In this document: positions 31,259 to 53,961 of the stretch, piece after piece
Numbering within the stretch: position 1 is the first letter of the stretch
Layout: every line of letters begins with the position of its first letter
IMG/VR virus record: IMGVR_UViG_3300010273_000001
Span: 1 to 54,387 of that record
DNA length: 54,387 bases
Strand: one strand, 5' to 3'
DNA from: a virus
Made by a program: the position numbers and the translations under genes
Notes under the pieces: generated by a model
The model's database searches: none
Told to the model about the DNA's origin: nothing
Seen by the model: only the letters and a program-made list of their open reading frames with translations

Positions 31259-34200
31259 ATGAATATTAAGTATGTCGGCTTAAAACCAGAAGAAGCACTT
31301 CTTAAAATTCAGAGCGATGCCGTTCAAGCAATAAGGGAAAAAGTCGAGGCTTATAGGAACAATGTCGACAAACTTCTTGCCGCCTACGAACCGCCTGAGG
31401 TTGATAGTTTTTGGGGAGCGATGGCTATTGCGCCTGCTACTCTTTATAGTCTAATTAAAAGTGGTTTGGATAGTTTAGTCGATTTCGGAGCTTCTTTTGC
31501 TTATGTCATCGAAAATGCGATTAACGATGCAATGCATATCTTCGATTCATCGGACGGAACGGATTGGCGGACGGATACCAAATATTTTTTTGGTAATTTA
31601 GGGCTTTCACTCCATGAAGCAATTAGCACTTCGCTTGTTTCTACAGGGGCTAATCTTGGACGGGTTATCGGCATTGATCCTAAATGGGCTTACGGGGAAC
31701 AGGGATTAATTCCGAAGATGGCTCGGCAGTATAACCTTTCTCGTTCCCAATTGCTTGCTTCTCCGGATAAAATCAGCATATTTAAGCCATATCAACCTGT
31801 TGAAGATTTAATGTCGAGCCAATGGGAAGAGTATAGGAAATATCTTGATTTTGCTGAGGGGAGAACTCCGGAACAAATTATCGAAGATCGCTATTACGAA
31901 GACATAAGAAATGCTATTGTTCAAACCGGCGAATTTCAGAATTGGGTCTCGCGTAATTTCGTGGAACCGATTGCAAATACTCTTACTTTGGGCACTAAAA
32001 AGTATGCCGATAGATATTACAAAGATAGCGAATTTTATAACTTCCTTATGGGGGCTGCTGAAAGTGCGGGGCGCATTCTTGCTTCTTGGGCGGTTGCTAA
32101 GATCGGTGCAAAAGCCGGAGTTAATCCTCAAACGTTGAGTTCGGCTTACTTTGCCGCGTCCATTTTTGCGGACAGTTTTGAGGAAGCTTTGAAAAACGGT
32201 GCTACTATGCAAGATGCCTATACTTACGCGGTAGGAACAGCTTTTCTTGAAACGGCGATCGAGAATTTTGGCGGTCGGACAACGAGCGGCGTAAAAAAAG
32301 CGGCAAAAAGAAGTCTGTTCGAAAAAGTCCTAGGAGAGAAATGGGGAAATATTGTCCAGCAGGCTGTCGAAGAAGGTCTTGAGGAAATTGGCTCGGAGGT
32401 TGCCGGAACAGGTCTTTCTTATTACGGGAGCGGTGAAAGACAAGTTGATTCCGCCGAAAGCTTCCGGGAATTCGCAAACAGAATAATGTTTTCGTTTTTA
32501 AGCGGCTCTATTACTTCGATGGGTCTTGGAATTGGGCATGATATGTATATTGACACAACCGCTATCGGTAAATCCCGACGCGTTCTTACCGATATAAGTA
32601 AACAAGTGACTTCTGAAAATTCCAATAAAGTTTATAGCCGTTTTCAAAAAGACCTTGAAAACTTTGTTGCGTATATAAATCGTCCGGATGCTAAAGGTCT
32701 GAAAACAACCACAAAAATCGTGGCGCCTTCCGGGGATGTTATCGGGCCAGCCGATGTAGGAGACGTCAAAAAAAAGGAAGTCTCGCAGTATGTAGGCGTC
32801 TTAACTCCGGAAGAAAAGAGCCGGTATATCCGTCAGATTGGGTTAGCAAATGTTATTGAAGAAGTTGACGGTAAATTCCAAATAAGAGAAAAAGCGCGGG
32901 AAATGGGCGATAAAATTTTTGCCGTTCGGGTTGGAGATAATGTCGTAAACAGAGCCGATTATGCAATCAATGACGCCGTTTGGGGTGTTGATATTAGCGA
33001 TGATGGCACAACCGAGGTTGTCAAAATGGCTAATCTTAATGAACGGGGCAAAAAGATACTTGATATCGCTCAAAAACGCAACATACCAATCGCTATTATT
33101 GACGAAGCGCCGAGAGGGAAGAACGATCTGGGGATTTCCGGATTTTATTCGGCAGATAACGGAATTATTTATATAAATCAAAATCCGAATGTTGATATGA
33201 CAGATGAAGAAATCGAATCGGTAATTATAAAGCACGAATTAGTCCATCATATCGCTAGCAAAAATCCGGAATTGTTTGAAAAATTAAAGAAAATGGTTAA
33301 TAAATTCGTTGATTTTGAAGTCGATGGGGAAGGCAAAAAGATTGATGTTACCTATAAGAATAAAAAAGTAGGTGAAATTCTCGAGAAAAAAGGTTTTTCG
33401 GATCATGTTTTGAAATCGTTCCTGGATTATTTTGAGGGATTAAAGGATATGAATTTTGCCGTAAAACAAGCGCAAGAAGAAGTTGTTGCTTATTTTGTCG
33501 AGGATATGCTCGAAGGCGGCGATTTTTTAGAGATTATCTCCAAAAAAGATGAGAAGCTGTTCGAAGAATTAAAAAACGAGACTACTGATGCTATTGATAT
33601 GGCTGTAGGCGAAGATAAAAAACTTGCCCGGAAGCTGAAGAAAATCCGAAAGAAGTTTGAGACTATTGCCGAAAAGACTTTGGCTCAAAAGAGGACGCTT
33701 CAGTCCTATATTGATCATTTCCTTGGCTCGGGATATGTTCTCGAAGATATGTTCAATAAAGAATTGCTTGAGAAATACGACGCTGAATATCTTTGGGATA
33801 TGTTATGGGAGACGTACGAAAAAGATCCTCAAGCAAGAGAAATCAAGATTGACGGCAAAGTTTATCCGCTTTCGCAAGTCTTGGCGCGGACTGCTAATGT
33901 CAAGCCAAAACGGCTTGCCCGTCCGGATTGGGATAGAATATATTCCGAGTTTAAGTATGACGCGCAAGAAAAGACTTTATATCTGAAACTTCTGCGAAAA
34001 TTTATTAATGAGAACAAATATGTGCAGGATGAAGAAATTCGGGAAATAGTTGGAGATGCTGAATGGGCGGTTGATAAAATTAGAGACGGGGGCGAATTGC
34101 GCGAATCCGAATATGAGATTCTCCGGCAATTAGTTACAGATTATAAATTTAGCGAAGCGGAAAAGAAATGGAGAGAAGAAAACGAAAAGGTTCTTGAAAC

Positions 34201-37200
34201 TACTAAATTCCGCGTACTGAAGAATTTAATCGCCCGAGTTGTCCGTTTCATGAACGATCCACAGAAATCTGGAATTACCGGTTGGCGTAATAGAAGTCAC
34301 ATTATGAGATATAATGCGGCTTATTTAGCGCTGGATAAATCGGCAAGGAAAGAAGGCGAAAGCGTCGAAGCTTTCGCAAAAAGAATTCAGATGATTACTT
34401 CGTTGAGTTTAGAGCCGTATTTCCCCGAGCAATTCAATGTCACTTATTATATCCCGGATAAAGCCGATTATATCGAATTCTTGATTAAACCGACGAGAGA
34501 ATTCTTGGAAGAAGAAACAAGAAAAGCGGAAGAAGCTGAAATCAAAAAACAAGAGACCACGGAAGTTGAGGGGCTAATGCCGGCAAAACCGCCTGTCAAA
34601 ACAACGAAGGAAGATTCTATAAATGCTCTTGAAGAAATCGGGGTTACTCTTGAAGGGAAAAAAGTTATCACTCTTGATGACAATATAACCTTGGAAAAAC
34701 TAGAAGAGATAAAATATGACGACAATAATATCGTTGTCGGGAATCCTCCGTTTGCCGAGAATAAGAACGCTGAATATTTAAAGAAAGCTCTTGAAATCGC
34801 GCCGGTTGTTGCGATTGTTTTGCCGCGTCCGTGGGCTAAATCCTATATGTTACAGAAAGAGATCCCGGGAGATAAGAAACTAATTTATAACGAGCTTATT
34901 CCGCTGAAATCTCTTAAAACTAGCTCGGGCAATCGGCAGATGAAAACGGTCGTTCAAATTTGGGTTGATTCCAAAAACAAAGAATTTGAAGATTTCGAAA
35001 ATATCCGGGCATTCTTTCAACCAAAAATGGCGCATCCTGATTTTTCCACATTTACTTTGACCGGCGAAAGACGCAAGTATGAGGATGCGAAATATTTCAA
35101 TTTTGATTTGGCAGTTGTTAGGGAAAGCAATACGGCTAAATTCAGTGAGATAATTACGAAGTATGAGGATTTGAAACCTAAAGGCCATTATCTTTTGATT
35201 AAAGCTAACAATCCGGAAGCGTTACAGATTTTTTCTATGATTGACTTCGAAGCGCTTGCCGACAAAGGCTCGACAATACAGAGGGGATTTACTACCTATG
35301 ATTTGATTGAAGAATATGAACGTATCAAGAAGGAGGTAAAATCCATTAAGACGCCTATGAAACGGCTTGCCGACGACACGAAACTCACGGACAAGGAACG
35401 GAAGTATTTAGGTGAGATTGCCGAGTATTTTACGAAAGATAAGTCTGGAAAATTCGTTATTAAATCCGAATATATCGTGAGGCAAAAACCGGCAAAACAA
35501 GCGGTTAAGATCAACGGCGTTGTTTATTCCTCGGACGAATATGCGGTTCATACCACCGTAGATTTGTCGAGCGTAAACGCGGAACTTAAATTGAAGCGGA
35601 GCGAATTTGAAAGACCTCTAAAACTTTCGGAACTTTCCGAAAAAGAACAGGTTTGGTTTGATTTTTTCCGAGCTTCGAATATGAACTTCGTTTTATATCG
35701 AGCCCCCCAAAATGCTTCTATTTTAGGATTTGAATATCCTTCGGAAGAATCTTATGTCGTTTATATCAATACGGAATATCTGTATCATAATTTTGATAAT
35801 TTTCATAAATTTCTTACCGGGACTTTCGTTCATGAACACGTGCATGAATTAAATAAAAGAAACAAGGCGAGAGCATTTAAGTTTGCCGCTGAACTTGCTA
35901 ATATTTTATTCGAAGTCAAAGACGGCGAAATTGTCCAGAGCGATATATTTAAAAAGATTGAAGAAACACGCTATAAAGACTTTGGTTCTTTTCTCCGTTA
36001 TATGAAAAACTCTTATTGGTATTTAAATAGCGGAAATAGTTTCTCATCTTATAAAGATCTTTATAATGCTTTAATTAAAGGAGATAATGGTGACCGTTTG
36101 CATTATCGGGTTGTAGATGAAGTTGTCGCTCAGATATGCGGCGTTCTATTCTCGGATTATGAGGTTTACAAGACTGTATTCCAAGGCAAAGCGGAAAACA
36201 TCTTACCTTTCCATCAACTCTATACGAAAATTCTTGATGATCCGAATATTCCGATAATGGTAAAAGAACAGATACGCAAAGCCGTTTTTGCTCTTGAAGA
36301 TGCTTATAAGGAATTTCTGGCTGATCTTAAAAAGAAATTTCCGCCTGAGGCCATCTATAAACTGCGCGATCTCAATAAATTTATTCGGTCGTTTACGAAT
36401 AACCGTTTCCGTTCAAGAAATGATCTTATCCAGCGATATTTGGAAGAAAGAGCGAATCATAAGCACGGTTTGGCGCATATGGCGGTCGATAACATAATTT
36501 ATATCGCTTCGTTGTTTGCGGAGCAGACGCAAAAGGGCTATGAATTCTATCAAAATATGAAAGAAGAATTCGAAGGTTTCCGAAAAAATATCGAGTTTCT
36601 TCTCAATAGCGAAGATGATTTGACGGTTCTTCAAAAAGGCGAGATTCGCCAACTGGTGAATCTTTTGATTAAGCAAAATATCTCCGAAGAAGGATTCATA
36701 TTGAGTGAGGGCGGGCTGGATCTCGTTGATAGAATTTTGGAATTTGCGGAAGAATACGAAATGATTCCGGAAGAATTGCTAAAAATTTTTGGCTTGCCTA
36801 CCCATAAGGAAATTATAAGCGTTGCCGCAGAACTCCAGAGAAATCAAGCCGAGGGAAATGCAACAGCTTTTCAAGTCAATTTCAGGGAATTCAAATCGCT
36901 TTTGAAGAAGATAAAACAGGTTTTGACGAGCGAGACCGATGATATTTTTAGGAAGATAGCCGATTTAAAAATCGCTTATCGCGAAAAAGAAATGGATTTG
37001 TTTATAACAAAACTTAAAAATCATTATGCCGCTTCCAAAAAGAAAATAACTTCCGTGAAACTTCAGTCCGAATCTCCGTTCAAAGAAACTCTTGCGGAAG
37101 TTATGACCTTAATTGCCGGCGGTAGGATTAACGGGGTAGATATTCCCGGAATCATTCAAGTGGTTCAAAATAACAAATATAATCTCAAGCAATTAAGAGC

Positions 37201-40200
37201 GGAAATCGTTCCTTTGCTTGAGAAAATTCGGGAACTTGCTCGAAAAAGCCCAGATATCCCGGAAGATGTTTTTGAAGAATACATCGAGCCGAGATTCAAA
37301 ACCATATACCGTCATCTTGCTTTGCTTTTGAAAGACCCCTCCGTTCTTTATGAAGTTTACCCGCCGGTCAAAAAAGAAGGAGGCCCTCAAAGCATCGACG
37401 AAGTTTTCGGAACAGTTATCACACTTGAACGGCTCGGGGGAAAATTTAATGCGAATGCTTTTGCAAGGGCTTTGATGGAAATATTGGAAAGATTCCAGAC
37501 TAGGTATACCACGTCTTTGAGCGGCGATACGCTAACTCATGATGAATATGCGGCGAAAACCAGCAAACAGGTTATTCAATTTAAAGACAAACTTGCAAAT
37601 GTCAATGCTAGGGCGGTCTCTTGGCTTATGCCTTATCAATTCTTCTTTGGAATGTATAAGGATTTAGTGGGTAATGAGATTGAATTCTTTTCCGATTTCT
37701 ACCGTGAATACATCGCGTCGGTTATGCGGCGCAGTGATATTCTTGCGGAATATAAAGAATCGTATAAAGAATGGGTAAAATCTCATAAAAAACATCAGAA
37801 GTTCACGCTCGAAAAAACGGAAGTCGCGAAGAATATGTTGCTTCAGATCCGGAAGGACGTGCTTCTTAATCTTGCCGGAGAAGCGCGGAGAGAGTATGAA
37901 GAAGATCGGCAGAAATACGAAGAAGCAAAAGAGGCTTATAATGAAATAAAAGATCAACTCGCGGCTAAAAACGCGCAAATCAAAAATACAAAAGAGGCTT
38001 TGAAAGGGCATGAAGAAAAATCGTTTACTTGGACAGCTCTTAAAAAACTTCTCGAACAATACGAAGAAGAGAAAAAGGCGTTGGTAGAAGAGAAAAATGA
38101 AAGAAAAATTATAAGGGATAATCTAAAAATCCTGCTTGAAAATGAAACGATTGAAAAGAGAACGAAATCCAAGATTTTTGAATGGGCTGCGGAAAACAAA
38201 GCAAAGAACTCGGAAGTCAGCTGGGGGCAGATAATAACAACTTATCTTGCGGTAGAGCGCGAGATTGAGATGGAAACAGCGGAATACGAAGATGTCCCGG
38301 GGATCAATCCAACGAAACACTTCGAATTCGGAAATGTCCTGCATTTCTTTGATAATGAATTGCTTTGGAAAAAAGGTTATGCCGTCGCGAAAGACAACGC
38401 CATTCCGTTCGTTATTTTTGCGGATAACAAAGAGAAATTGCGCGATTATCTTTGGGGGTTGATAAAGGATAACGAAATCGCACAAGAAATAATTAATTTT
38501 GCTAAAGAGCGGTTCGATAAAAACTATGAATATATTGACGAAATCTTTTTTGCGAAATATGGCGTTCATTTACCTCGGCAAGAAACATATGTTCCATTTG
38601 CGTCTCTCGAGAGCGATTATGCTCGGGATGTTGAATTAAAGATTATCAACCGAAGAAACATGGCTACCCCAGACGGCTTTGTTATGGAAACAACGCTGGG
38701 AGCAAGGACGGATTTAAGAATTGAAAACATCTTTGCGGTAATCGAAAACCATACGAGATCGATAGCCAATTATTGCGGTTTTAATCGGTTGCTTTACGAT
38801 TGGCAGAATCTCTATGTTAACAAGGCCGGCGGAGCGCCTTTGCAAGAAGCCTTTACCGGAAAGGACAATAAATTCGGGCAAAATAACGATATTGCGCATA
38901 TGATTGAACAGGCTTTTGCCGACAATCTCGGTTATGGGGATGTCATGGCAACCCCGGTTGAAAAATGGGCAAATAAAGTTTTGCTTAACAGTATGGCGGC
39001 GACAATGTCGGTAAATATCCCGTCAATGGTAAAGCAGTTCGCCTCGGTTTTGACGGTAATGATTAAACATAAATTGTCTCCGAGTGCTTTCATTAAGAAT
39101 GTTGTGTTGAGTTTGGGTCGATCTAAATATCGGAATTGGCTCCTGAAAAACAATAGCAATTTTTATCATAGAGCCGACGCCGGCAATGTTCCGCATTTAG
39201 CGGACGCGGCAAATCTCGGTATTTACTATATTGCGCAAGATGTGACAAGAAAAATCGCAAATACCTTAACGAAACATATTGGTTGGGCAGATAACACTGT
39301 TCTTGTCGCGGCTTTCAAAACGATAGCGGACGAGGTCAGAAAGCAAAATCCAGGGATGCCGGAAGAAGAAGTTTTGAAAAAAGCGAACGAGCAATTTATG
39401 GAGGTCTTGTTGTTTGGAGTGGCGAATACCGATCCGGGATTCCGGGCGCATTTCTCTAACTCAAACAAATTCCCAACAAGATTTGCAAGCCGTTTCCAAA
39501 GCGAGAACATCATCCATGCGGCAGCACTTTACCGGGATTATGTCTATGTCAGAAACGGCTATTCGGGCGGGTGGAAAAGATTTGCCCGAGACTTTATCGC
39601 CTTCTTGTTATCGGCTTTGTTCACGGCTTATGTATCGAATACTTTCAACCGAATGAGAGGTTATTACGAGGATAAAGAAGAAGCTGATTTTGACTTTTGG
39701 GTGAATGAGCTTCTACTTAATAATATTATTGGAGGCCTTCCGGTTGTAAATCAATTTACTTCCCTTATTCAATTTGAAAAACCAAAAGACGGAGGAGGCA
39801 AGTTAATTAGCGCCGGATTTTCGCCTAGGTTGCCGGGAATAACCGAGGTATACGAAATAATAAAGGCGGTAGATTCAATGCAAACAGGCAAGAATATACC
39901 CCGTAAAATCTTGAGAATTTTTGAGAATATCGGGAGCATGGTCGGATTCCCGGTTAAGAATATCAATCGGCTTATCTCGACGACCTCCCGGTTGCTTGGG
40001 GCGCAAGGGATCGAGCAAGCGGAAAGCATTGCAAGATTCTACAGCTCGCAAACAAAAGCGCAAGCATTCACGGCGGCTATCAAAGAAAACAATCGGACAA
40101 AAATCAACATGTATGTAGAAGAAGTTTATGGCGATCTCGAGGTTCGTAATGAAATAGTTAACTTGCTCGCGGCAAACCCGGATTTAAGATTGAATCTGTA

Positions 40201-40468
40201 TAATGTGAAATATTTCTCTAAAGACAAGGTGAAATATGCTATACCAGAAGATGTGAGAGAGAAATATAATGATTTGGCTCAAAGAGCCTTGCGGATTTTG
40301 ATTCGGAAAGGCGCTTATAAACGGATGAAAGCCGAAGATAAAGTCAAAGCAATGCAACGGATAATAAATTACCACTACAATTACATGAAATCCGTTGTAT
40401 TGAAAGAAAAACGCGAATTGCTAAGTCCCGCCGAGGTTGTCGAACGAGCATTAAAAATAGAGGGCTAA
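31259..40468 (+). CDS. giant polyvalent protein (3069 aa): two zincin-like HExxH modules plus an NPPF methyltransferase-like module
   Basis: Uninterrupted 9.2-kb ORF with SD AGAGGAG. Motifs are HELVHH (aa 659), NPPF (aa 1162) and HEHVH (aa 1525). Each HExxH is preceded by a similar ...(I/V)YIN... segment. Confidence 0.8.
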   Translation: MNIKYVGLKPEEALLKIQSDAVQAIREKVEAYRNNVDKLLAAYEPPEVDSFWGAMAIAPATLYSLIKSGLDSLVDFGASFAYVIENAINDAMHIFDSSDGTDWRTDTKYFFGNLGLSLHEAISTSLVSTGANLGRVIGIDPKWAYGEQGLIPKMARQYNLSRSQLLASPDKISIFKPYQPVEDLMSSQWEEYRKYLDFAEGRTPEQIIEDRYYEDIRNAIVQTGEFQNWVSRNFVEPIANTLTLGTKKYADRYYKDSEFYNFLMGAAESAGRILASWAVAKIGAKAGVNPQTLSSAYFAASIFADSFEEALKNGATMQDAYTYAVGTAFLETAIENFGGRTTSGVKKAAKRSLFEKVLGEKWGNIVQQAVEEGLEEIGSEVAGTGLSYYGSGERQVDSAESFREFANRIMFSFLSGSITSMGLGIGHDMYIDTTAIGKSRRVLTDISKQVTSENSNKVYSRFQKDLENFVAYINRPDAKGLKTTTKIVAPSGDVIGPADVGDVKKKEVSQYVGVLTPEEKSRYIRQIGLANVIEEVDGKFQIREKAREMGDKIFAVRVGDNVVNRADYAINDAVWGVDISDDGTTEVVKMANLNERGKKILDIAQKRNIPIAIIDEAPRGKNDLGISGFYSADNGIIYINQNPNVDMTDEEIESVIIKHELVHHIASKNPELFEKLKKMVNKFVDFEVDGEGKKIDVTYKNKKVGEILEKKGFSDHVLKSFLDYFEGLKDMNFAVKQAQEEVVAYFVEDMLEGGDFLEIISKKDEKLFEELKNETTDAIDMAVGEDKKLARKLKKIRKKFETIAEKTLAQKRTLQSYIDHFLGSGYVLEDMFNKELLEKYDAEYLWDMLWETYEKDPQAREIKIDGKVYPLSQVLARTANVKPKRLARPDWDRIYSEFKYDAQEKTLYLKLLRKFINENKYVQDEEIREIVGDAEWAVDKIRDGGELRESEYEILRQLVTDYKFSEAEKKWREENEKVLETTKFRVLKNLIARVVRFMNDPQKSGITGWRNRSHIMRYNAAYLALDKSARKEGESVEAFAKRIQMITSLSLEPYFPEQFNVTYYIPDKADYIEFLIKPTREFLEEETRKAEEAEIKKQETTEVEGLMPAKPPVKTTKEDSINALEEIGVTLEGKKVITLDDNITLEKLEEIKYDDNNIVVGNPPFAENKNAEYLKKALEIAPVVAIVLPRPWAKSYMLQKEIPGDKKLIYNELIPLKSLKTSSGNRQMKTVVQIWVDSKNKEFEDFENIRAFFQPKMAHPDFSTFTLTGERRKYEDAKYFNFDLAVVRESNTAKFSEIITKYEDLKPKGHYLLIKANNPEALQIFSMIDFEALADKGSTIQRGFTTYDLIEEYERIKKEVKSIKTPMKRLADDTKLTDKERKYLGEIAEYFTKDKSGKFVIKSEYIVRQKPAKQAVKINGVVYSSDEYAVHTTVDLSSVNAELKLKRSEFERPLKLSELSEKEQVWFDFFRASNMNFVLYRAPQNASILGFEYPSEESYVVYINTEYLYHNFDNFHKFLTGTFVHEHVHELNKRNKARAFKFAAELANILFEVKDGEIVQSDIFKKIEETRYKDFGSFLRYMKNSYWYLNSGNSFSSYKDLYNALIKGDNGDRLHYRVVDEVVAQICGVLFSDYEVYKTVFQGKAENILPFHQLYTKILDDPNIPIMVKEQIRKAVFALEDAYKEFLADLKKKFPPEAIYKLRDLNKFIRSFTNNRFRSRNDLIQRYLEERANHKHGLAHMAVDNIIYIASLFAEQTQKGYEFYQNMKEEFEGFRKNIEFLLNSEDDLTVLQKGEIRQLVNLLIKQNISEEGFILSEGGLDLVDRILEFAEEYEMIPEELLKIFGLPTHKEIISVAAELQRNQAEGNATAFQVNFREFKSLLKKIKQVLTSETDDIFRKIADLKIAYREKEMDLFITKLKNHYAASKKKITSVKLQSESPFKETLAEVMTLIAGGRINGVDIPGIIQVVQNNKYNLKQLRAEIVPLLEKIRELARKSPDIPEDVFEEYIEPRFKTIYRHLALLLKDPSVLYEVYPPVKKEGGPQSIDEVFGTVITLERLGGKFNANAFARALMEILERFQTRYTTSLSGDTLTHDEYAAKTSKQVIQFKDKLANVNARAVSWLMPYQFFFGMYKDLVGNEIEFFSDFYREYIASVMRRSDILAEYKESYKEWVKSHKKHQKFTLEKTEVAKNMLLQIRKDVLLNLAGEARREYEEDRQKYEEAKEAYNEIKDQLAAKNAQIKNTKEALKGHEEKSFTWTALKKLLEQYEEEKKALVEEKNERKIIRDNLKILLENETIEKRTKSKIFEWAAENKAKNSEVSWGQIITTYLAVEREIEMETAEYEDVPGINPTKHFEFGNVLHFFDNELLWKKGYAVAKDNAIPFVIFADNKEKLRDYLWGLIKDNEIAQEIINFAKERFDKNYEYIDEIFFAKYGVHLPRQETYVPFASLESDYARDVELKIINRRNMATPDGFVMETTLGARTDLRIENIFAVIENHTRSIANYCGFNRLLYDWQNLYVNKAGGAPLQEAFTGKDNKFGQNNDIAHMIEQAFADNLGYGDVMATPVEKWANKVLLNSMAATMSVNIPSMVKQFASVLTVMIKHKLSPSAFIKNVVLSLGRSKYRNWLLKNNSNFYHRADAGNVPHLADAANLGIYYIAQDVTRKIANTLTKHIGWADNTVLVAAFKTIADEVRKQNPGMPEEEVLKKANEQFMEVLLFGVANTDPGFRAHFSNSNKFPTRFASRFQSENIIHAAALYRDYVYVRNGYSGGWKRFARDFIAFLLSALFTAYVSNTFNRMRGYYEDKEEADFDFWVNELLLNNIIGGLPVVNQFTSLIQFEKPKDGGGKLISAGFSPRLPGITEVYEIIKAVDSMQTGKNIPRKILRIFENIGSMVGFPVKNINRLISTTSRLLGAQGIEQAESIARFYSSQTKAQAFTAAIKENNRTKINMYVEEVYGDLEVRNEIVNLLAANPDLRLNLYNVKYFSKDKVKYAIPEDVREKYNDLAQRALRILIRKGAYKRMKAEDKVKAMQRIINYHYNYMKSVVLKEKRELLSPAEVVERALKIEG
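33233..33250 (+). other. HExxH motif 1 (HELVHH)
   Basis: Read from the translation, aa 659-664. Confidence 0.9.
34742..34753 (+). other. NPPF motif (N6-adenine MTase motif IV-like)
   Basis: DDNNIVVGNPPFAE, aa 1162-1165. Confidence 0.85.
35831..35845 (+). other. HExxH motif 2 (HEHVH)
   Basis: FVHEHVHEL, aa 1525-1529. Confidence 0.9.
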
Positions 40469-40483
40469 TTGCCCTCTTTTTTT
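40459..40483. terminator. hairpin terminator shared by the two convergent arms
   Basis: AGAGGGC-TAATT-GCCCTCT followed by T6. The stop codons of both convergent genes lie in or next to the loop. Confidence 0.7.
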
Positions 40484-41508
40484 GTTTCTGAAAATAATTG
40501 ATCTAAAAATGTCGGCTCGGCCTCGCCTTTGTTGTTCCAATAGATGTTTTCAACCACCTTTTTCTTCGGCTTGTTGTCGCCTAAATCGCCGTTATCGAAT
40601 AATTGAATCTTGTAATCAAAATTTATTGGCTTAATATCTTCCGGGGCTTCATAGGACGAAACATAAACCGGATACGGGCAAGTCCTAAACCATTGCCAAA
40701 ATTTCTCGTAATCAAATTCACCTCCGAATTGGTATTGAGCCTTATTTTCATACGGCGGATCACAATAGATGAACGCTTCTTTGAGAATAACATCCGGCAA
40801 GGAATTATAGAAATCGAGCCAATCCATAGCCGAGAGATTAAGCCGATTCTGGTGCGGAATTGCGCGTTTTATTGCATCGAGATGTTCCATTTGCTGTAAA
40901 TGCTGCATTTGAACGAGTAATTTTAATACAGGATATTCTTTTTCGTGTTCTTCGGCATACTTTTTAAATTTTTGCATAAATGCAGTTCTTTTGGTATAAT
41001 GTCGCTTGTAATCAACATTTCTGATTATTTCCGGGACGGTAAAATCTTCGAGTTCTTTCAGTTTTTTTATTTCGCTGAAATCATCAAATACTAAAGCATT
41101 ATGTAAGGCTTTTTTGTAGAAATCCCGGTCGGGGCCGTAAAGATAATGTCTTTGGTTGATTCCGAAAGACCAAACATTGAGGACGAAACCGACATACCAA
41201 TCTGGGTATTTTTCGGGATTATCGCGTACCTCTTCGAAATGTTCGCGGGAGACCCAATTAAATTTTACCGTTTTTAAGTCGGAATTTTCGTTTATAATCG
41301 CTTTTATAAGGGCGATAAGGTATTTATTAATATCGTTCGCAAAAACGATATAGTTCGAATTTACAAGCGCAAAATTCGAAACGGAGAAGCCGCCGCAGAA
41401 TAAATCAATAAAATATCTTTTTTTGTATTCGCGCTCGAAGATATAACGAATTAAGTGCAAGATTTGCTCTTTACTCCCCATGTAAACCATTCCGTATCTT
41501 CTGTTCAT
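40465..41508 (-). CDS. dam: Dam-like (D12 class) N6-adenine DNA methyltransferase
   Basis: YMGSK N-terminus, motif I DLFCGGFSV and motif IV YCDPPY. Confidence 0.85.
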   Translation of the reverse strand: MNRRYGMVYMGSKEQILHLIRYIFEREYKKRYFIDLFCGGFSVSNFALVNSNYIVFANDINKYLIALIKAIINENSDLKTVKFNWVSREHFEEVRDNPEKYPDWYVGFVLNVWSFGINQRHYLYGPDRDFYKKALHNALVFDDFSEIKKLKELEDFTVPEIIRNVDYKRHYTKRTAFMQKFKKYAEEHEKEYPVLKLLVQMQHLQQMEHLDAIKRAIPHQNRLNLSAMDWLDFYNSLPDVILKEAFIYCDPPYENKAQYQFGGEFDYEKFWQWFRTCPYPVYVSSYEAPEDIKPINFDYKIQLFDNGDLGDNKPKKKVVENIYWNNKGEAEPTFLDQLFSETKKEGN

Positions 41509-42528: not shown

Positions 42529-45087
42529 TTAAAACGGCAAATCGTCCGAATTTTCTTTTTTCTTTCTTATAAGCAATTGATGCCCGAAAACTCCAAAGCG
42601 TCTTTGTTCTTTTGTGATTTCCCAACCGAGATTTTTCAAAGCCTGCTCAATCAATTCTCGATGATAACGGTTAATAGTCAAATCTTTTTGCCCGAGGGCT
42701 ACTTGCCAGAGTTCTTTCATGCAAACCTTATCTACCGGCTCAAGGCTTGCCCCCTTCCAAGTCATGTCGGTGCATTTGTTTATATCAAAATTATAATTTT
42801 TAAGATAGAATAGCATATCCTCAACTTGCATGGAATACCAACTTTTCGGGCGTTCCATATTGAGGTAATTACTTAAAGCACCATAGAAATCGTTCTCGGC
42901 AAGATTTTCTTCATTCGCTCTTTCCCAATAGAATAATTCTAGATCAGACCATTGGAAAATGTCAAATCCGTTTTTATAAAGATGAATCGCTTCAGCAATC
43001 AATTGGTCTTTATAATATTGTGTAAACTCACTGCCCGGCTTAATATAACATTCTTGTTTTTTTAATGGGCTTTCGATTACCATAAACCGGCGATTCCCGG
43101 TGCGGTCTCGAAGCGGTCTTGACTCGTTCGTTGTTCCGCCAAAGACAACCCGCCGACGAATTTCAACATTTCTTCTTCCATAAGAACGGCGGAATTTATC
43201 CTCGGTCTTATCAACGAAAGCTTTAATACTTTCTTGTTCGGACATATTCATCCCGGCAAGTTCTTTCCACTCGTAAATCCAAATCCCTTCCAACTGTTCA
43301 TAACTATCCTTTGCGCGGTTGAAATCAATTTTAGTGTCGGAATAAAGATGTTCTTCCGGTTTATTGAAATCAATTGTCGCTAGGCGTTTGAAAAATAAGG
43401 ATTTACCGATTCCTTGTTCCCCTTTAAGAACAAGCACCAAATCCATTGGCGAACCGGCTTTATAAATTCGGGAAACCGCCCCCACAAGCCAATGTTTTAA
43501 AGCAGCTCGGGTAAAAGGATTCAAAGGGACTTTAAAAAAGTCATGGAAAAAGAATTCCAACCGTTCTTTCCCGTCCCATTGCAAACTTTCAAAGTATTCC
43601 AAAACTTTGTTTTTCTGAATTTTATCCGCTTCAACGACAACCGCATCTTCGATTACTCGATCCCCCTTTATACCATAGACTTTATCAAGATAGGCGCGGA
43701 TATGGGACATATCCCGGTCAGTTATGGCATCTCCTACATTAAATTCCTTGCGCCAGAACGGTTTTCGTAGAAAACAAATATTATCCCGAAAAGTATCATA
43801 ATAGAGCAAATTTTTAAGATTTGAATCATATTCAAAGATGACGGCTAATTTTGCATACGCGCTTTTTACTCCTTCAAGTTTTACTATCCATTTTGTATCC
43901 TCTTCCAAAGGAGTTTCTGCTTGAGATTTCTGATCCCCGAAAAATTCCTCTATATATTTTTGTTCTTGTTCCAGCCTTTGAACAAGTTCTATACTGTTAT
44001 CGGTATTAGCGACAACTTCAGGGAGTGTTCGGCAGAATTCTACCATTTTAAGAAAACTCTCCGTTTTTTCATATACTCCTTGTTCTATATATCTTTCCGG
44101 AGTAAATTTGTTATCAAATTTCCCGAATTTATGAATCCTTACCAAATCGAAAGCACTGCGATAGAAAAGGTTGGCTGGGTCTGTTCCATGATGAGAATAA
44201 AAAAGCGTATCGTTGTTTAAAATAATACCGCCGCCTTTGCTGGTTCCATCCAGATAAGTGTATCTGCCATTCCTCTCCTTTTTATACACATCTGATAAGA
44301 ATTTTTCTATCGCTTGTGAAACGCTGTATGTTCGATTGAATGCGCCAACCATCCCTTTCGCTTTTAGGGGATTTTTATTTGCTAGCACGTTTTTTCCGAT
44401 GCGTTCTTGATCGATTTTTTCTGGCGTGAACCATTCGAAAATATCATTTTTATCGAGATATTCGTTTAAAATTTCGTCAACATCAATAATTTTTTGTTGT
44501 TCGGCAAAAATATCGACATTTAAGAGTTCGCAAATATATTCGCCATCAGCCGACACTGATGGAAAGAACATTAACCTATTTGCTTGAAAGGTTGTTTCGT
44601 CGAATAGCCCCCGAAACGGCTCCCCGGTAGGCGGGTTTTCGATTTTATAGGCTAACCGCCTACCGAGTGCTTCGTATTCATCCGCATTAACTGGTCTTGA
44701 CAGGGGGGCAATAATTCTAAATCGATTTTCCTGTGGCGAATGGCTGTGCGTTGAATGAACCAAGCAGAAGAAATCAATATTTTTTTGCAAATAGGGGAAA
44801 ACGTTAGGGAATTTCGTGTCAATATCAAGGGTAAGCAAATGGCGCATTATCTTAACTCCGGCAATTCGCCTATTCCCTTCGGTTTCTCCGCCGATAAATC
44901 CTCCAACATCTTTGATAGTAGCTTTTGTCTGTTTGTCGGCGTTCATATACTCGGCATATTTTTCTTTAGTTCTTTTTACCTTGTGTTTGAATCCGAAATA
45001 AATATCCTCAAAAGTTCTTTCCATTAAAGTTCCGGTTGTCTGATAGCGATTTTTAAATACGGTAATTTTATATTTCGGACTTCCCAT
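42529..45087 (-). CDS. primase-helicase (AEP prim-pol-like N-terminus plus VirE/D5-like P-loop NTPase)
   Basis: LTLDIDTKF and VHSTHSHSP (AEP-like), plus P-loop LKGEQGIGKS. SD GGGGGAGAA precedes the ATG at 45087. Confidence 0.8.
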   Translation of the reverse strand: MGSPKYKITVFKNRYQTTGTLMERTFEDIYFGFKHKVKRTKEKYAEYMNADKQTKATIKDVGGFIGGETEGNRRIAGVKIMRHLLTLDIDTKFPNVFPYLQKNIDFFCLVHSTHSHSPQENRFRIIAPLSRPVNADEYEALGRRLAYKIENPPTGEPFRGLFDETTFQANRLMFFPSVSADGEYICELLNVDIFAEQQKIIDVDEILNEYLDKNDIFEWFTPEKIDQERIGKNVLANKNPLKAKGMVGAFNRTYSVSQAIEKFLSDVYKKERNGRYTYLDGTSKGGGIILNNDTLFYSHHGTDPANLFYRSAFDLVRIHKFGKFDNKFTPERYIEQGVYEKTESFLKMVEFCRTLPEVVANTDNSIELVQRLEQEQKYIEEFFGDQKSQAETPLEEDTKWIVKLEGVKSAYAKLAVIFEYDSNLKNLLYYDTFRDNICFLRKPFWRKEFNVGDAITDRDMSHIRAYLDKVYGIKGDRVIEDAVVVEADKIQKNKVLEYFESLQWDGKERLEFFFHDFFKVPLNPFTRAALKHWLVGAVSRIYKAGSPMDLVLVLKGEQGIGKSLFFKRLATIDFNKPEEHLYSDTKIDFNRAKDSYEQLEGIWIYEWKELAGMNMSEQESIKAFVDKTEDKFRRSYGRRNVEIRRRVVFGGTTNESRPLRDRTGNRRFMVIESPLKKQECYIKPGSEFTQYYKDQLIAEAIHLYKNGFDIFQWSDLELFYWERANEENLAENDFYGALSNYLNMERPKSWYSMQVEDMLFYLKNYNFDINKCTDMTWKGASLEPVDKVCMKELWQVALGQKDLTINRYHRELIEQALKNLGWEITKEQRRFGVFGHQLLIRKKKENSDDLPF

Positions 45088-45748
45088 ATTTCTCCCCCAA
45101 TATCCATTTCGCCCTAGCAATGCAAGTGTCTTTTATTGCACAATATGCACAGGCTTTTTCGCTCGGATTATAGGTGAGTCTGTTTTGCCGAATATCGTCG
45201 AATACTTTTTCTTTTTCGATGAAGAAATCCAGAATGTTTTCGGGGGTTGTATTAATTGTGCGCATTTTGCCTTTTTGATGTATTGACAATCTAATATTTT
45301 GTATATCGGGATATTCCAATACTACATAAGCCCCGTAAAATAAAAGCTGTTCGTTATCTTCTTCATCGACTTCCTTTCTACCCGTTTTGAGATCAATAAT
45401 GCTTGCGGTGTCGCGACCAATAAGTAAAGCATCTATTACCAAATGAATATCGAAATCGTAAATAGTCATTTTTTGCTTTTGCTCTGTAAATATTTTGGTG
45501 GCAAGTATTTCGTTATATTCGCGCCAAACAGAATTTACATAACTTTCTACAATAAATATTTCGTAATCATTTATTTTATTATTGATTTCAAATTCGCGGG
45601 TATCTTCATTCCGCAACCTTTTTTCCGCAAACTCGTGCAGTAATTTTCCTCGTATGGTCGCGGCGTTTTCGACAAAAGGCACATCGTGCATTAAAGAAGC
45701 AGTGCAATTTAGAAATCTATGTGCCTTGCTGGGCGACAAATTATACAT
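45068..45748 (-). CDS. Cas4/RecB-like PD-(D/E)xK exonuclease (DUF2800-like)
   Basis: N-terminal SPSKAHRFLNC, IIDLKTGRK, and C-terminal CAYCAIKDTC cysteine cluster. SD AAGGAGGAGAG precedes the ATG at 45748. Confidence 0.75.
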   Translation of the reverse strand: MYNLSPSKAHRFLNCTASLMHDVPFVENAATIRGKLLHEFAEKRLRNEDTREFEINNKINDYEIFIVESYVNSVWREYNEILATKIFTEQKQKMTIYDFDIHLVIDALLIGRDTASIIDLKTGRKEVDEEDNEQLLFYGAYVVLEYPDIQNIRLSIHQKGKMRTINTTPENILDFFIEKEKVFDDIRQNRLTYNPSEKACAYCAIKDTCIARAKWILGEKYGKSEI

Positions 45749-49554: not shown

Positions 49555-50511
49555 TTAACTAAAATCTAAATAAAACTGATAGTGTGTATTTTTAATCCTT
49601 TTTTGGGCCATTGAAACATATTCAGGGTTTATTTCAATCCCTATCCAATTACGTCCTAATTTTTTTGCTACTACTCCGGTAGTTCCGCTTCCCATAAACG
49701 GATCCAAAACAATTCCGTCTTTCGGGCAACCAGCTTTTATTGGAGTTTCGATAAGCTCCTCAGGGTATACTGCGAAATGTAGCTCACTAAAATTTCTTGT
49801 CGATATAGACCAAACAGAACGTTTATTTCGCATAAGGTCTACGGGTGGTTTATACCTATCATTAAAACCTATATAATCATTTCTCCCAACTAAATCTTGT
49901 TTTCTTCTTCCACTATTTATTTGACCTATAACCCCTTTACTTCCTCTAGGTGGATTAATATCTTCTGTAACCATAGGTTCTTTTTGTTGTTCAAAGTAAT
50001 ATTTTTTATTTTTAGTAAAGAAAAATAGTTTTTCAAAATCAACCGTAAACCGATCTTTAACGCTTTCCGGCATAGCATTCGGCTTATGCCATATAATTTC
50101 GTTTCGAAGAATATAGCCTAGTTCATCGGTCATCATAAGGGCAAACCGAGATGGTATTTGCAACAGACATTTACCAGTATATTTTTTGCTCAATGAAATG
50201 CTTTGACCGTTTCTACCGTTTTTATATTTAGGATCTTTATAGTTTTGCTTATCGCCAGTTCCACCATAGGCATCCCCTAAATTTACCCAACAAGAACCTT
50301 CTGCTTTTAAAACTCTTTTTACTTCCGCAAATATTTCGCATAACTTTTCTAAATATTCTTCTAAAGTATCTTCTCTACCTAATTGATCTTTTACTCCATA
50401 ATCTCTTAATCCCCAATAAGGCGGAGATGTGATTACCATATCAACACTTTCACCAGGGAATGTTTTCAGAATCTCTAAACAATCCCCTTGATAAATATGA
50501 TTAATTTTCAT
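49555..50511 (-). CDS. beta-class DNA methyltransferase (N4-C/N6-A family; SPPY type)
   Basis: Motif IV ITSPPYWGLRDYG near the N-terminus and motif I DPFMGSGTTG near the C-terminus. Confidence 0.85.
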   Translation of the reverse strand: MKINHIYQGDCLEILKTFPGESVDMVITSPPYWGLRDYGVKDQLGREDTLEEYLEKLCEIFAEVKRVLKAEGSCWVNLGDAYGGTGDKQNYKDPKYKNGRNGQSISLSKKYTGKCLLQIPSRFALMMTDELGYILRNEIIWHKPNAMPESVKDRFTVDFEKLFFFTKNKKYYFEQQKEPMVTEDINPPRGSKGVIGQINSGRRKQDLVGRNDYIGFNDRYKPPVDLMRNKRSVWSISTRNFSELHFAVYPEELIETPIKAGCPKDGIVLDPFMGSGTTGVVAKKLGRNWIGIEINPEYVSMAQKRIKNTHYQFYLDFS

Positions 50512-50541: not shown

Positions 50542-52488
50542 TCAAAATAAACTCAATTGACCTTTTTCTTTCGCTTTTTCTAATTCTTGTTGATAATCAT
50601 ATTTATACTTGTTTAAAGCATAATCAATTCTATCCCTTGCAATATTGCAATATTCTTCCTCTAAATCAATTCCAATGAATTTGTAATCGGCTTGTCTTTC
50701 TCTATTTTCAAACATACACGCTTTGCCGGTTGAACCACTTCCCATAAATGGATCAAGTATTATTCCGCCCTTTGGTGTTACTAATCGGACTAAATACTGC
50801 ATTAACTCACAAGGTTTTACTGTTGGATGAATATTTTTACGAAGAGTTTCGCCGCGTTGATATGGATTGTCGATTGATTTTTTACGCCCATCATTTATAG
50901 TGGATGCCGCTATCTCCAACCCTTCATCTCTATCTTTTTTATTTGCTTTTGCACAATAGAAAAATCGGGAAGCAGAACCACTATCACCGTATGTTTCACT
51001 TAATGGATGTTCTTTATTAAACTTACCATAAATACCATTAGGACTACCATCAGTGTGTCTTTGATGTTCGCTTGTCATTTTCCCACTTTTCGTATGAGGA
51101 AATAAACTTTCTACTTCATCACTTCCATCGTGGATTACGTTTGCTGGAAAACGACCTTGGGATGTTTTCTCAGTTATACACTTCTTGGTTCCCCAACCAT
51201 CACTCTGTAAGTTATCTAAAAATCCAACATTTGTTGCAATAGTTTCACCATTTTCTAACGGAATCCTACAACCATCAATGTTAATACCACCCACACCATA
51301 TTTGATTACATTATCGGCAACCGTTCCTTTAAATGGTTTTCTTGCAACAATTATAGGTTCATAGGCAGGTTTTAATGCAGTTCCCCAACCTTGCCATTGA
51401 TTTTGTGCTTGTTTGATTTCATATTCGCCACCGAAAGGATTTTTAACCATATTTAGACTTCTAGTATGTGTATTTGCGTTTCCACTTTTGCCTTTCCCAA
51501 TTATTTTACTTTTTAGCCCTAATTTTTTATCTATCGCTAAACCTATATTTAATGATTTTGGGAACCCTGAATTACCCGTTATAAATATTTGACCGTTTCG
51601 CCTAGCCACAAACGCACCCGTTGGAACTTGAACGCACCACATGTTTCCGACATATTCTACTTCTTCGACAGTCGCCAGAGTGGTTCGGGTTTTCCCGTAG
51701 CCCCACATACAGGGCAGGTTATCAACACCTTCCCCTCGCATTGCTCCGGAGGGATTACTTTCCCCTTCTTGTTTTTGCTGATACTCTTGGAGGCGCACTC
51801 TTTGGAGCAAGTCTTGTTTCGTGATGCTTGTTCCTTCGTGTGGGTAGGGAATGGTTTCCGGCAGATCGTGCAAACTTTCCAAAAAGGGTACACTCTCTTG
51901 ACGTTCCAATGTTTCGGCGTAGGCAAATACTTTTCTTCCGCCTCGTTCAACAATGCAACGATGATTTCGGGAAACGATTTGGTCTGTAAAATCCGATTTA
52001 ATTCGGTAGGCGGGATGTTTGTTTTCATAGATAAAACTCCTTTCGGGTTGGTGGATCTCGAAAGAATCTTTATCCATGTTATAACATATTACGGGGCTTT
52101 CTTCAATGGCTTTATGGTATCGTTCCCATCCGTTAAGTGTCAATATCTCTGTATCTTCCGACAAGCATCCATATAACCACATAATGGTATCTCTTATTTC
52201 AAACCCAGCATCCTCAATAGCACAAGCAATTCTGTGAAATGTTTTACTGCCGCCAAATGCTAATAAATAACCGCCTGGTTTTAATACTTCATAGCACTTT
52301 CGCCAAGTTTCAGGTTGAAAAGCAATTCCTGTTCTATCCCACCCTTTATTCATAAAGTTAAGTTCATATGGTGGGTCAGTTATTATTGAGTCTATTGTAT
52401 TTGGTTCTATAATTTCTAACATATCTAACATAGAACCGTTATAAATAGAATAACTCTCTGTGTTTGCTATTAGTTTTATTTTCGCCAT
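50542..52488 (-). CDS. beta-class DNA methyltransferase (DPPY type) interrupted by a mini-intein
   Basis: TDPPYELNF and DPFMGSGSTG. The extein junction IMWLYG|SGFPKS is restored after removing aa C..N (199 aa). ATG at 52488; the ORF-track start at 52506 is TTG. Confidence 0.85.
   Translation of the reverse strand: MAKIKLIANTESYSIYNGSMLDMLEIIEPNTIDSIITDPPYELNFMNKGWDRTGIAFQPETWRKCYEVLKPGGYLLAFGGSKTFHRIACAIEDAGFEIRDTIMWLYGCLSEDTEILTLNGWERYHKAIEESPVICYNMDKDSFEIHQPERSFIYENKHPAYRIKSDFTDQIVSRNHRCIVERGGRKVFAYAETLERQESVPFLESLHDLPETIPYPHEGTSITKQDLLQRVRLQEYQQKQEGESNPSGAMRGEGVDNLPCMWGYGKTRTTLATVEEVEYVGNMWCVQVPTGAFVARRNGQIFITGNSGFPKSLNIGLAIDKKLGLKSKIIGKGKSGNANTHTRSLNMVKNPFGGEYEIKQAQNQWQGWGTALKPAYEPIIVARKPFKGTVADNVIKYGVGGINIDGCRIPLENGETIATNVGFLDNLQSDGWGTKKCITEKTSQGRFPANVIHDGSDEVESLFPHTKSGKMTSEHQRHTDGSPNGIYGKFNKEHPLSETYGDSGSASRFFYCAKANKKDRDEGLEIAASTINDGRKKSIDNPYQRGETLRKNIHPTVKPCELMQYLVRLVTPKGGIILDPFMGSGSTGKACMFENRERQADYKFIGIDLEEEYCNIARDRIDYALNKYKYDYQQELEKAKEKGQLSLF
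51571..52167 (-). mobile_element. 199-aa mini-intein (Hint domain)
   Basis: Block A CLSEDTEILTLNG, block B IVSRNHRCIV, blocks F/G MWCVQVPTGAFVARRNGQIFITGN followed by +1 Ser. No endonuclease domain is present in frame. Confidence 0.8.
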
Positions 52489-52583
52489 TTGTTTCAGCCC
52501 TTTCAAAACAAACTCATTTGTTCCTGCTTTAAAATAGTGCTAGTTGACCTTTAACGCAGAGAATTAAGATAATACCCCGAGTT

Positions 52584-52857: not shown

Positions 52858-53961
52858 TTAAGAATTGCTTTTCTGTATTTCATAGTTCTCCTTTTTCTTT
52901 ACCCTTGCTATAATCTTTCCACATAACCCCCACTCTTCAAGCGGCACTTCTCGCAACACTTTTGCTTTGCTTGTTCTAACTTTACCATCGGAATCCAACG
53001 GTAATACAATATCTTTGATATCAGTCTCTAATTCTAGGATTGCTAAATCAGACCAACTTCCCCCATAATTCAAAGCCCAATCCAAATGAGAAATATGTAT
53101 GCCCGTTGAACAATCTTTTTCATTATTAGGATCGCATTCTCCTTTTACTGTTTCACCGATTTTATAAATAAAATTGCTGTTATAATCGCTACGATATATA
53201 TCGCCATCTTTATGCACTGCTTTATAAAAAACAGCTTTTTTATTATCGTGCTCTATTTCATAAAAATCCATAAATTCCCGAATTGTCTGGGGGGGATAAA
53301 CAATACGAGCATTGCCAAACGCTCGGACTTTCCCCTTCGTTTGATTAATGATTTGACTATTGCCATAGCCTTCAACAGATGAACTATCCCGAGCAACAAC
53401 AAAAGAATTTCCCTTAGCCTCAACCCAAGAGTTACCCCTAGCCTCAACCGAAGAATTTTCGATTGCTATAACCATATAATTCCCCAAAGCCACAACATGA
53501 GAATTCCCCGAAGCCGCAACATAAGACTTATCCCAAGCCTCAATCGAAGAATTGTCCCGAGCCGAAACCCAAGACTTATCCCAAGCCTCAATCGAAGAAT
53601 TGCCCGTGGCTACAACCGAAGAAAGATCTCGGGCTACAACCGAGGAATTATCTCGGGCTACAACCCCGGATTTATCCAAAGCCACAACAAAAGAATTTTC
53701 CAAAGCTTCAATCGCAGACCTATCTCTAGCCTCAACCACAGACTTCCCCTTAGCCACAACAGAGGAATTCCCACAAGCCACAACATGAGAATTATTCAAA
53801 ACCACAACAGGTAAATAATATCTGTTTCTTACTTGTATTTTATGGCTACCACAATCAACATAAATCATACCTTTAAAACTCAAAGGAATCGCATCTAACT
53901 CAGCTTGGGTTCTAACCGTTATTTCGGTTAGTTTTGAATAATCAATATTTTTCATATTCAC
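52858..53961 (-). CDS. octapeptide-repeat (beta-solenoid-like) protein with globular C-terminal domain
   Basis: About 19-21 tandem 8-aa units x(G/D)(N/K)Sx(V/I)xA. SD AAGAGGTG. Confidence 0.75.
   Translation of the reverse strand: MNMKNIDYSKLTEITVRTQAELDAIPLSFKGMIYVDCGSHKIQVRNRYYLPVVVLNNSHVVACGNSSVVAKGKSVVEARDRSAIEALENSFVVALDKSGVVARDNSSVVARDLSSVVATGNSSIEAWDKSWVSARDNSSIEAWDKSYVAASGNSHVVALGNYMVIAIENSSVEARGNSWVEAKGNSFVVARDSSSVEGYGNSQIINQTKGKVRAFGNARIVYPPQTIREFMDFYEIEHDNKKAVFYKAVHKDGDIYRSDYNSNFIYKIGETVKGECDPNNEKDCSTGIHISHLDWALNYGGSWSDLAILELETDIKDIVLPLDSDGKVRTSKAKVLREVPLEEWGLCGKIIARVKKKENYEIQKSNS
53296..53799 (-). repeat. tandem 24-nt coding repeats (octapeptide units)
   Basis: Units include LNNSHVVA, CGNSSVVA, KGKSVVEA, RDRSAIEA ... 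YGNSQIIN. Confidence 0.85.

Follow-up and report, generated by a model that had tools for sequence, protein, structure and literature searches.

In the present study, we analysed a stretch of viral DNA of 54,387 nucleotides (nt) (IMG/VR virus record IMGVR_UViG_3300010273_000001, positions 1 to 54,387; hereafter the window), in which a DNA methyltransferase gene on the minus strand (-) is split by an intein, and a second open reading frame (ORF) of 123 codons is nested within that intein in the +1 frame of the same strand. This second frame, ORF123, is very probably the nuclease-dead relic of an overprinted HNH homing-endonuclease gene, whose full-length counterparts were found at the same place in homologous inteins.

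Results

The host gene, coding for an N6/N4 DNA methyltransferase (methylase), occupies 50542..52506 (-). It matches PF01555 in two separate stretches (Pfam, E = 2.4e-35) and phrog_67 (PHROG, E = 1e-62). The ORF was listed from a TTG at 52506, and the ATG at 52488, with GAAAGGG before it, is the more likely start. The intein at 51571..52167 (-) has 199 aa (CLSEDTEILT...RNGQIFITGN, then Ser) and was delimited by its splicing residues, by a fold model and by an empty allele. It is inserted after ...IMWLYG and before SGFPKS, and in gp64 of Mycobacterium phage Mantra (L015), an allele without the intein, AWLYG/SGFPKS is uninterrupted (the slash marks the insertion point here and below). A search with the main-frame intein gave 64 homologous methylase inteins at the same site, many of which contain a 200-aa insert in which R, S, Q, G and E are frequent. 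The residues present in the window intein include Cys1, block B S66-R-N-H69 (51961..51972 (-)), the C-terminal N199 and the +1 Ser; H69 is nearly invariant in the family alignment, and the penultimate residue is Gly in place of the usual His (the intein ends in TGN). The AlphaFold2 model built from 39 homologs has a predicted local distance difference test score (pLDDT) of 91.3 and a predicted template modelling score (pTM) of 0.85. With this model as query, Foldseek retrieved 34 solved structures of inteins or of HINT domains at E <= 1e-3, led by 6zgq, the AceL NrdHF intein (E = 6.7e-8). The intein sequence alone gave weak profile matches, and a PDB sequence search with it was nil or marginal. 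On the splicing residues and the model, the insertion is an intein with a predicted HINT fold and predicted splicing, and in its present form it is a mini-intein whose splicing halves are separated by a remnant of 68 aa. As a separate observation, its block F has a Cys (MWCVQ), and the best structural match, 6zgq, is a class 3 intein.

ORF123 (51657..52028 (-), 123 aa plus stop) was located exactly as an earlier sequence-only reading of the window had described it, in the +1 frame relative to the host gene. Its ATG at 52028..52026 straddles intein codons 47/48, so that the ORF starts after intein residue 47 as claimed, and its stop lies before block F, 29 codons ahead of the C-terminal Asn of the intein. 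The Shine-Dalgarno (SD)-like motif GAAAGGAG is found at 52037..52044 (-), separated from the ATG by the 8-nt spacer TTTTATCT (52036..52029), again as that reading had it; in the main frame the codons covering the motif encode P-E-R-S. The same SD and ATG also occur in the relatives L002-L005 and L016-L021.

The product of ORF123 can be divided into four parts by alignment to the full-length relative L016 and to the family. Residues 1-50 (51879..52028 (-)) correspond to a helical N-terminal domain in the model of a homolog and are dual-coded with the N-terminal splicing domain of the intein; the bases of block B read there in +1 as a conserved part of this domain (...SFPEIIVALLNEAEE...). Zinc ribbon 1 (C53 TIC56 RKPFPTHTKEQASRNKT C74 SKE C78; 51795..51872 (-)) is complete, and all four of its Cys are invariant or nearly so in the family alignments. 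Of zinc ribbon 2 only the first half is left (C105 PV C108; 51705..51716 (-)), the second CxxC pair having been deleted. The C-terminal tail ATGKPEPLWRLSKK with its stop (51657..51701 (-)) is identical to the last 14 residues of the full-length L016, L009 and P0069 proteins. The whole Cys pattern is thus C53-x2-C56-x17-C74-x3-C78, plus C105-x2-C108. The sequence-only reading had likened the motif to the zinc ribbons of small phage DNA-binding and homing-endonuclease-associated proteins, and profile searches bear out a zinc ribbon of the HNH-associated kind, as residues 51-111 match the HNH-endonuclease family phrog_1271 (PHROG, E = 2.4e-4) and the relatives carry HNH_3. The catalytic His...Asn...His motif is absent from ORF123; the corresponding core, GYVMEHRL...VVHHIDHxPxNNxxxNLxLF...H, lies within 146 codons that are deleted in the window. 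ORF123 is hence predicted to be no functional member of HNH_3 (PF13392).

It was also considered whether ORF123 could be a chance frame with a fortuitous Cys pattern in a GC-richer stretch. The GC content of the intein is 47-55% against ~35% in the flanks, a local rise that lowers the frequency of stop codons, and ORF123 itself gave nothing significant against Pfam or NCBIfam. However, the stop-free +1 run in the host gene extends over 143 codons, where synonymous permutation of the gene gave a mean of 60 and P(>=143) = 0.003. Furthermore, ORF123 can be aligned over its whole length to hundreds of longer ORFs in the +1 frame of homologous inteins, and the homology to these HNH proteins is residue by residue with all Cys included. 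A chance origin is therefore extremely improbable. A protein search with ORF123 gave one match, P0001, a frame-hopping fragment of an indel-ridden 1.6-kb contig, which we regard as a lead only.

When seven IMG/VR relatives were read in all frames, six of them (L002-L007) were found to carry a +1-frame ORF of 253-268 aa. These ORFs start at intein codon 47-50, at the same MKTNIP... position as ORF123, and end 29-32 codons short of the intein end, just ahead of block F, with the intein frame open across the whole +1 ORF. Across the family the ORF has 250-300 aa and comprises the N-terminal helical domain, two CxxC...CxxC zinc ribbons (YPFWKxCxxC...CSxxC in the first and CxxCGK...CSRxC in the second) and an HNH_3 core. 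The HNH_3 (PF13392) scores of L002, L006 and L007 are 33.7-39.3 bits (threshold 24.8), the full-length ORFs match PHROG HNH families at E = 1e-13 to 1e-17, and the residues of the HNH catalytic region are invariant in alignments of 30 and 60 sequences. The model of the full-length member P0066 has a pLDDT of 90.7, rising to 94-97 in the N-terminal domain, with helices at 7-14 and 20-33.

When the L002 ORF was used as a protein query, 811 clusters matched at E <= 1e-3. In all but four of the best 120 clusters, the +1 reading of block B (...QTxSSPETIxALLNEAE...) is present, and the four exceptions are short entries that start downstream of it. Since the same bases read TDQIVSRNHRCxVERGG, that is intein block B, in the main frame, the family is nested in this intein. 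Relatives of the HNH protein were also seen in cultured isolates (L102, L103 and L107: Plastorhodobacter daqingensis, Cupriavidus sp. UYPR2.512 and Curtobacterium pusillum plasmid pCPAA3) and in metagenome-assembled genomes of many phyla, where the copies presumably sit in prophages; the family as a whole comes from many environments. In GenBank, a 484-kb uncultured phage (LR756508.1; L014) has the same architecture, the feature being unannotated there; its intein runs CITPDTEILT...MFVTGN/SGFPKS and its +1-frame HNH is 44% identical to that of L002.

The event that shortened the window copy could be placed precisely. Relative to L016 (Ga0208461_1014564), the closest full-length relative, exactly 438 nt (146 codons) are absent at the junction 51701..51702 (-): by blastn, nt 289-805 of the window gene correspond to 202-718 of L016 at 96.5% and nt 806-951 to 1157-1303 at 96.6%. 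Comparison with L017 and L009 gave the same breakpoints and the same size. There is no microhomology between 51702 and 51701, and IMG/VR had no match to a degenerate query of the junction. As a result, the match of ORF123 to the L016 protein (268 aa) covers residues 1-109 and 256-268. The deletion took out the latter half of zinc ribbon 2, a linker and all of the HNH_3 core; it fused ...ITCPVCG to ATGKPEPLWRLSKK and the stop, and left the catalytic residues of the intein and the methylase frame unharmed. The window intein differs from that of L016 at 8 of 597 nt (98.7% identity; ~98% at the amino acid level), whereas the N- and C-exteins are 60% and 53% identical. A near-identical intein in divergent exteins is what would be expected if the intein had recently spread horizontally and the deletion had come later still, very recently. 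Separately, L009 (ENA contig NODE_183605, coverage 2) has a stop in the intein frame (...LPCMW-stop-GRLEG...) with an intact HNH frame, which is either a low-coverage error or a case in which the host gene was broken instead of the nuclease.

Within the overlap, three substitutions separate the window from L016, and all three are non-synonymous in the ORF123 frame (S19F, A43V and Y63H), while two of the three are silent in the intein frame. At positions 19 and 43 the L016 residue is the family consensus (S and A), so that the window residues look derived there; position 63 has no family consensus. This suggests a relaxed constraint on ORF123.

Because SD, ATG and open frame are intact, we also weighed whether ORF123 is a functional nuclease-dead zinc-ribbon DNA-binding protein that was retained or co-opted, for instance to occupy the homing site, to block related endonucleases that co-infecting phages bring in, or to regulate expression. 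The kept residues 1-109 are confidently modelled modules of the full-length protein (pLDDT ~80-97), and a second stump, that of L122, was truncated independently and is open too. In zinc-ribbon HNH nicking enzymes the zinc ribbons flank the catalytic HNH domain, according to Xu et al (PMC3592412), and we take from this a possible DNA-binding role here. But the host gene tolerates only deletions by multiples of three, by which the +1 frame is preserved automatically, and so the open frame is no evidence of function. In addition, zinc ribbon 2 is halved, two of the three overlap differences, all of which change the protein, replace a consensus residue, no second copy of the allele was met among protein matches or as a junction match in IMG/VR, and other relatives decay on to stops. 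A retained function is therefore unlikely. That ORF123 is translated from its strong internal SD as a nuclease-dead protein with the N-terminal domain and one zinc ribbon, which still recognises the homing site in the methylase and, for instance, shields that site from related HNH enzymes of co-infecting phages or tunes methylase expression, is quite unlikely; if true, an overprinted homing endonuclease would here be starting to become domesticated.

The mini-intein relatives L122, L123 and L124 show further stages of decay. L122 has an independent, larger in-frame deletion that joins half of zinc ribbon 1 to the C-terminal HKLYEARG... and the stop, L123 has a premature stop after CQNCKMD, and L124 has several stops in the HNH frame. 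Stops in the +1 frame of homologs, which would speak against a gene there, are thus confined to such decayed copies (L123, L124) and are absent from intact members.

For the evidence of dual coding, we surveyed 84 metagenome and genome loci that carry the zinc-ribbon motif. The intein frame is stop-free across the HNH ORF in 82 of them, and the third frame has 6-34 stops. When the HNH ORF was recoded synonymously, 12-18 stops were expected in the intein frame against none observed, and none of 3000 randomisations per locus was stop-free; this difference indicates that selection holds the intein frame open. Over the zinc-ribbon and HNH region, the divergence was 0.31, 0.27 and 0.50 at positions 1, 2 and 3 of the HNH codons. 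The amino-acid identity was 0.54-0.67 in the HNH frame against 0.24-0.38 in the intein frame, the latter being equal to that of the non-coding third frame (in one example, 0.28 for the intein, 0.29 for the third frame and 0.54 for HNH). By these patterns of divergence, purifying selection follows the HNH frame.

In the first 50 codons of the ORF, the third-position divergence of the intein frame is 0.156, against 0.617 in the C-terminal blocks outside the ORF, which were taken for comparison as they are as conserved as the overlapped N-terminal region. Similarly, among 47 unique loci, pairs with the same amino acid had differing codons in 35% of cases around block B and in 65% around blocks F/G (Mann-Whitney p = 3e-8). 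Synonymous change is thus suppressed over block B, and this supports dual coding there. An ATG stands at the homologous start in 43 of 79 loci, with the SD core in 33 of those 43, and in most loci that lack this ATG the ORF is open further upstream. As such a start exists in 43/79 loci, programmed frameshifting to make an intein-HNH fusion is not needed. These comparisons indicate that the HNH gene is genuinely overprinted at the level of the family.

The same survey bears on whether ORF123 descends from an endonuclease domain that was once in frame and was moved to +1 by compensating frameshifts. There are phage inteins whose HNH lies in frame (cited in bioRxiv 10.1101/2025.01.02.630785), and two database proteins, P0008 and P0012, seemingly fuse the intein N-domain in frame to a zinc ribbon and HNH. 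We rejected these two as true in-frame fusions, as they come from short contigs with one or two frame shifts in which both frames are moved and the intein is broken. In the contigs concerned (L011 for P0012 and L012 for P0008), the shifts, putatively 1-nt indels, lie in a Lys-rich stretch between the zinc ribbons, and may be sequencing errors, real decay or slippage. They break the intein frame as well, so they lend no support to a displaced domain; in nearly all surveyed loci the HNH occupies +1 and the intein frame is open, in most loci the ATG is at the homologous position or the ORF is open upstream of it, and the N-terminal 50 residues overlap block B, which was never possible in frame. 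An in-frame ancestry is therefore very unlikely. The sequence-only reading had left the choice between a gene overprinted on the intein and a relic of such a displaced domain. The former holds for the family, with its full-length +1 HNH, and fails for the window copy, which has lost the nuclease core; of the latter, the relic stands and the once in-frame domain does not. The same reading had placed the Cys-rich part over a low-complexity linker. This agrees with the model for residues ~137-160 only, the sole low-confidence segment of the intein, whereas zinc ribbon 1 lies opposite the conserved residues 96-136 (LESLHDLPETIP...QDLLQRV), which are common to many homologs and modelled at pLDDT 93-95.

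The window is from a phage: it encodes a large terminase subunit (13166..14965), a primase-helicase (42529..45120), helicases and three methyltransferases. The two other DNA methyltransferase genes lie at 49555..50511 (-) and 40465..41508 (-), and PF01555 is also matched by the one directly downstream of the intein-containing gene. No GenBank phage matched 24 kb of the window by megablast. An ORF at 31259..40468 (+) encodes a protein of 3069 aa, which is unusually large for a phage, and PHROG gave no match to it at E <= 1e-5. In the 367-aa ORF at 52858..53961 (-), the first half consists of many short imperfect repeats (NSSVVA.GNSS(V/I)EA), and the C-terminal part has weak matches to PHROG families annotated as RIIB lysis inhibitor. 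An antisense ORF of 195 codons at 51589..52176 (+) covers the whole intein. It was rejected as a third gene, for its frame is open over just 54-151 of ~340 codons in full-length homologs, and it is probably incidental.

Discussion

The most likely explanation for ORF123 is that it is a non-functional intermediate between a full intein and a mini-intein. In the proposed mechanism, frame 0 of the methylase mRNA would give the precursor from which the intein splices itself out, and the ~230 residues opposite the nuclease gene would be merely a stop-free tether that is tolerated in splicing. In this subfamily, internal initiation at GAAAGGAG-N8-ATG, within the N-terminal splicing domain of the intein, would give a free-standing +1 protein of ~265 aa with a helical N-terminal domain, two zinc ribbons for presumed DNA binding and the HNH_3 nuclease core. 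This enzyme would presumably nick or cut intein-less methylase alleles near WxYG/SGFPKS in co-infecting phages, and repair would copy intein and nuclease gene together into the cut allele, which is homing. In the window phage, the recent and exactly in-frame deletion of 438 nt would then have removed the whole HNH active site; with SD, ATG and open frame remaining, ORF123 may be translated still, but it would be unable to cut DNA.

Several points weigh against this explanation. Internal initiation is read from the SD and the ATG, in the full-length gene and the stump alike, and the nuclease activity of the family and its cleavage target are predictions. With the model of the full-length HNH protein, Foldseek retrieved nothing significant from PDB (YacG zinc ribbon, prob 0.5; I-HmuI, E = 1.5), PDB searches with the HNH protein sequence were nil or marginal, and so HNH membership is founded on the sequence profiles. 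In the main frame, residues 100-136 face zinc ribbon 1, are modelled confidently and may be structured, in which case they would be no passive tether. The signal of relaxed constraint comes from only three substitutions, a very small sample. Finally, a stump with a strong SD, a complete zinc ribbon and an N-terminal domain of which the full-length relatives give a confident model could have a residual DNA-binding role.

Out-of-frame endonucleases in inteins have been described in recent years. Gosselin, Arsenault and Gogarten reported an endonuclease VII-like homing endonuclease in frame 3 of actinobacteriophage inteins, and also antisense LAGLIDADG and VSR-like homing endonucleases (bioRxiv 10.1101/2025.01.02.630785). 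In a cyanobacterial dnaX intein, Phillips, DeSimone and Gogarten found a LAGLIDADG homing endonuclease in a +2 ORF and called it a rarity (bioRxiv 10.64898/2026.09.14.751524). The present inteins resemble those of 2025 and 2026 in that a nuclease ORF on the same strand, but out of frame, lies between the splicing halves and the intein frame is stop-free; they also share purifying selection on the nuclease frame, SD-like motifs ahead of its start, and discordant histories of intein and exteins. They differ in that the nuclease here is an HNH_3 with two zinc ribbons, of which the window copy is without the nuclease core, and in that the host is a phage DNA methyltransferase, outside the four host proteins given for non-canonical homing endonucleases in bioRxiv 10.1101/2025.01.02.630785. 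In our full-text literature search, we met neither an HNH lying out of frame within an intein nor this family of methylase inteins. Out-of-frame intein endonucleases are thus already known from 2025-26, and what is new here is a large set, not described before, of out-of-frame HNH genes nested in inteins.

Another comparison is provided by the ShiLan domain, a hidden out-of-frame HNH in mycobacteriophage DNA methylases that, according to its authors, starts at GTG and lacks both splicing blocks and any detectable ribosome-binding site (Arsenault, Gosselin and Gogarten 2025, Genes 16:178, PMC11855218). Both belong to the same methylase family, and in both the HNH is out of frame and the methylase frame is stop-free. 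By tblastn, the L002 HNH matches the ShiLan gp65 region at 28% identity (E = 7e-11), which indicates that the ShiLan HNH and the intein-nested HNH are homologous. ShiLan gp65 itself (L013, a Mycobacterium phage) has a homologous intein at the site used in the window (...WCVKVPTGAFVARRNGKVFITGN/SGFPKS), and its ShiLan domain lies ~70 residues downstream of that site. In contrast, the HNH studied here is carried by a bona fide intein, with blocks A/B on one side and F/G on the other, and in this subfamily it is preceded by a canonical SD and starts with ATG. The window ORF is accordingly no ShiLan domain, since intein blocks flank it and it occupies another position in the methylase. ShiLan domains may go back to inteins of this kind or to a shared free-standing HNH; with a homologous HNH in the same methylase family, the methylase inteins are a plausible evolutionary link to the so far unexplained ShiLan domain. 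As a side observation, L004 and L005 (IMG/VR) have a second insertion of ~165 codons in the C-extein of the same methylase (...SAARFF/Y.AKAS...), with the methylase frame open. In another frame there is a 139-aa ORF with many zinc-ribbon motifs (MQKYICQQCGKEF...KYCSVEC...CESCHHKLH), for which Pfam gave sub-threshold zinc-ribbon matches only. It looks like a second hidden gene of a nuclease-like kind in one methylase and recalls the ShiLan domain.

Mini-inteins arise by loss of the endonuclease, and the homing-cycle model describes gain, fixation and degeneration. The window copy agrees with this course in that an in-frame internal deletion removed the nuclease, the splicing residues are intact and relatives show successive stages of decay. 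Unlike in the usual mini-intein, the nuclease was lost from the other frame, by which an open, SD-preceded stump ORF was left besides a shortened linker. With regard to the enzyme, zinc ribbons are extra domains flanking the catalytic HNH in phage nicking endonucleases, as stated by Xu et al 2013 (NAR 41:378, PMC3592412). The full-length relatives are similar to these enzymes and to I-HmuI (PDB 1u3e) in having an HNH core with extra CxxC zinc-ribbon modules, the activity here being predicted, but the genes of those enzymes are free-standing or intron-encoded and involve no overprinting.

Conclusion

The stump ORF and the intein were both overlooked by standard gene callers and Pfam, and a "mini-intein with a low-complexity linker" can conceal the remains of a second gene or, in relatives, a whole gene. 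Over ~50 codons of this family, an essential splicing block and a confidently modelled nuclease domain are laid on the same bases. The window copy, at 98.7% identity to an intact copy, is a dated step in the decay pathway. While the papers of 2025-26 call out-of-frame intein endonucleases rare, the methylase family supplies hundreds (811 clusters; both frames open in 82/84 loci), and thus constitutes a large natural data set on overprinting and on the origin of intein-endonuclease associations.

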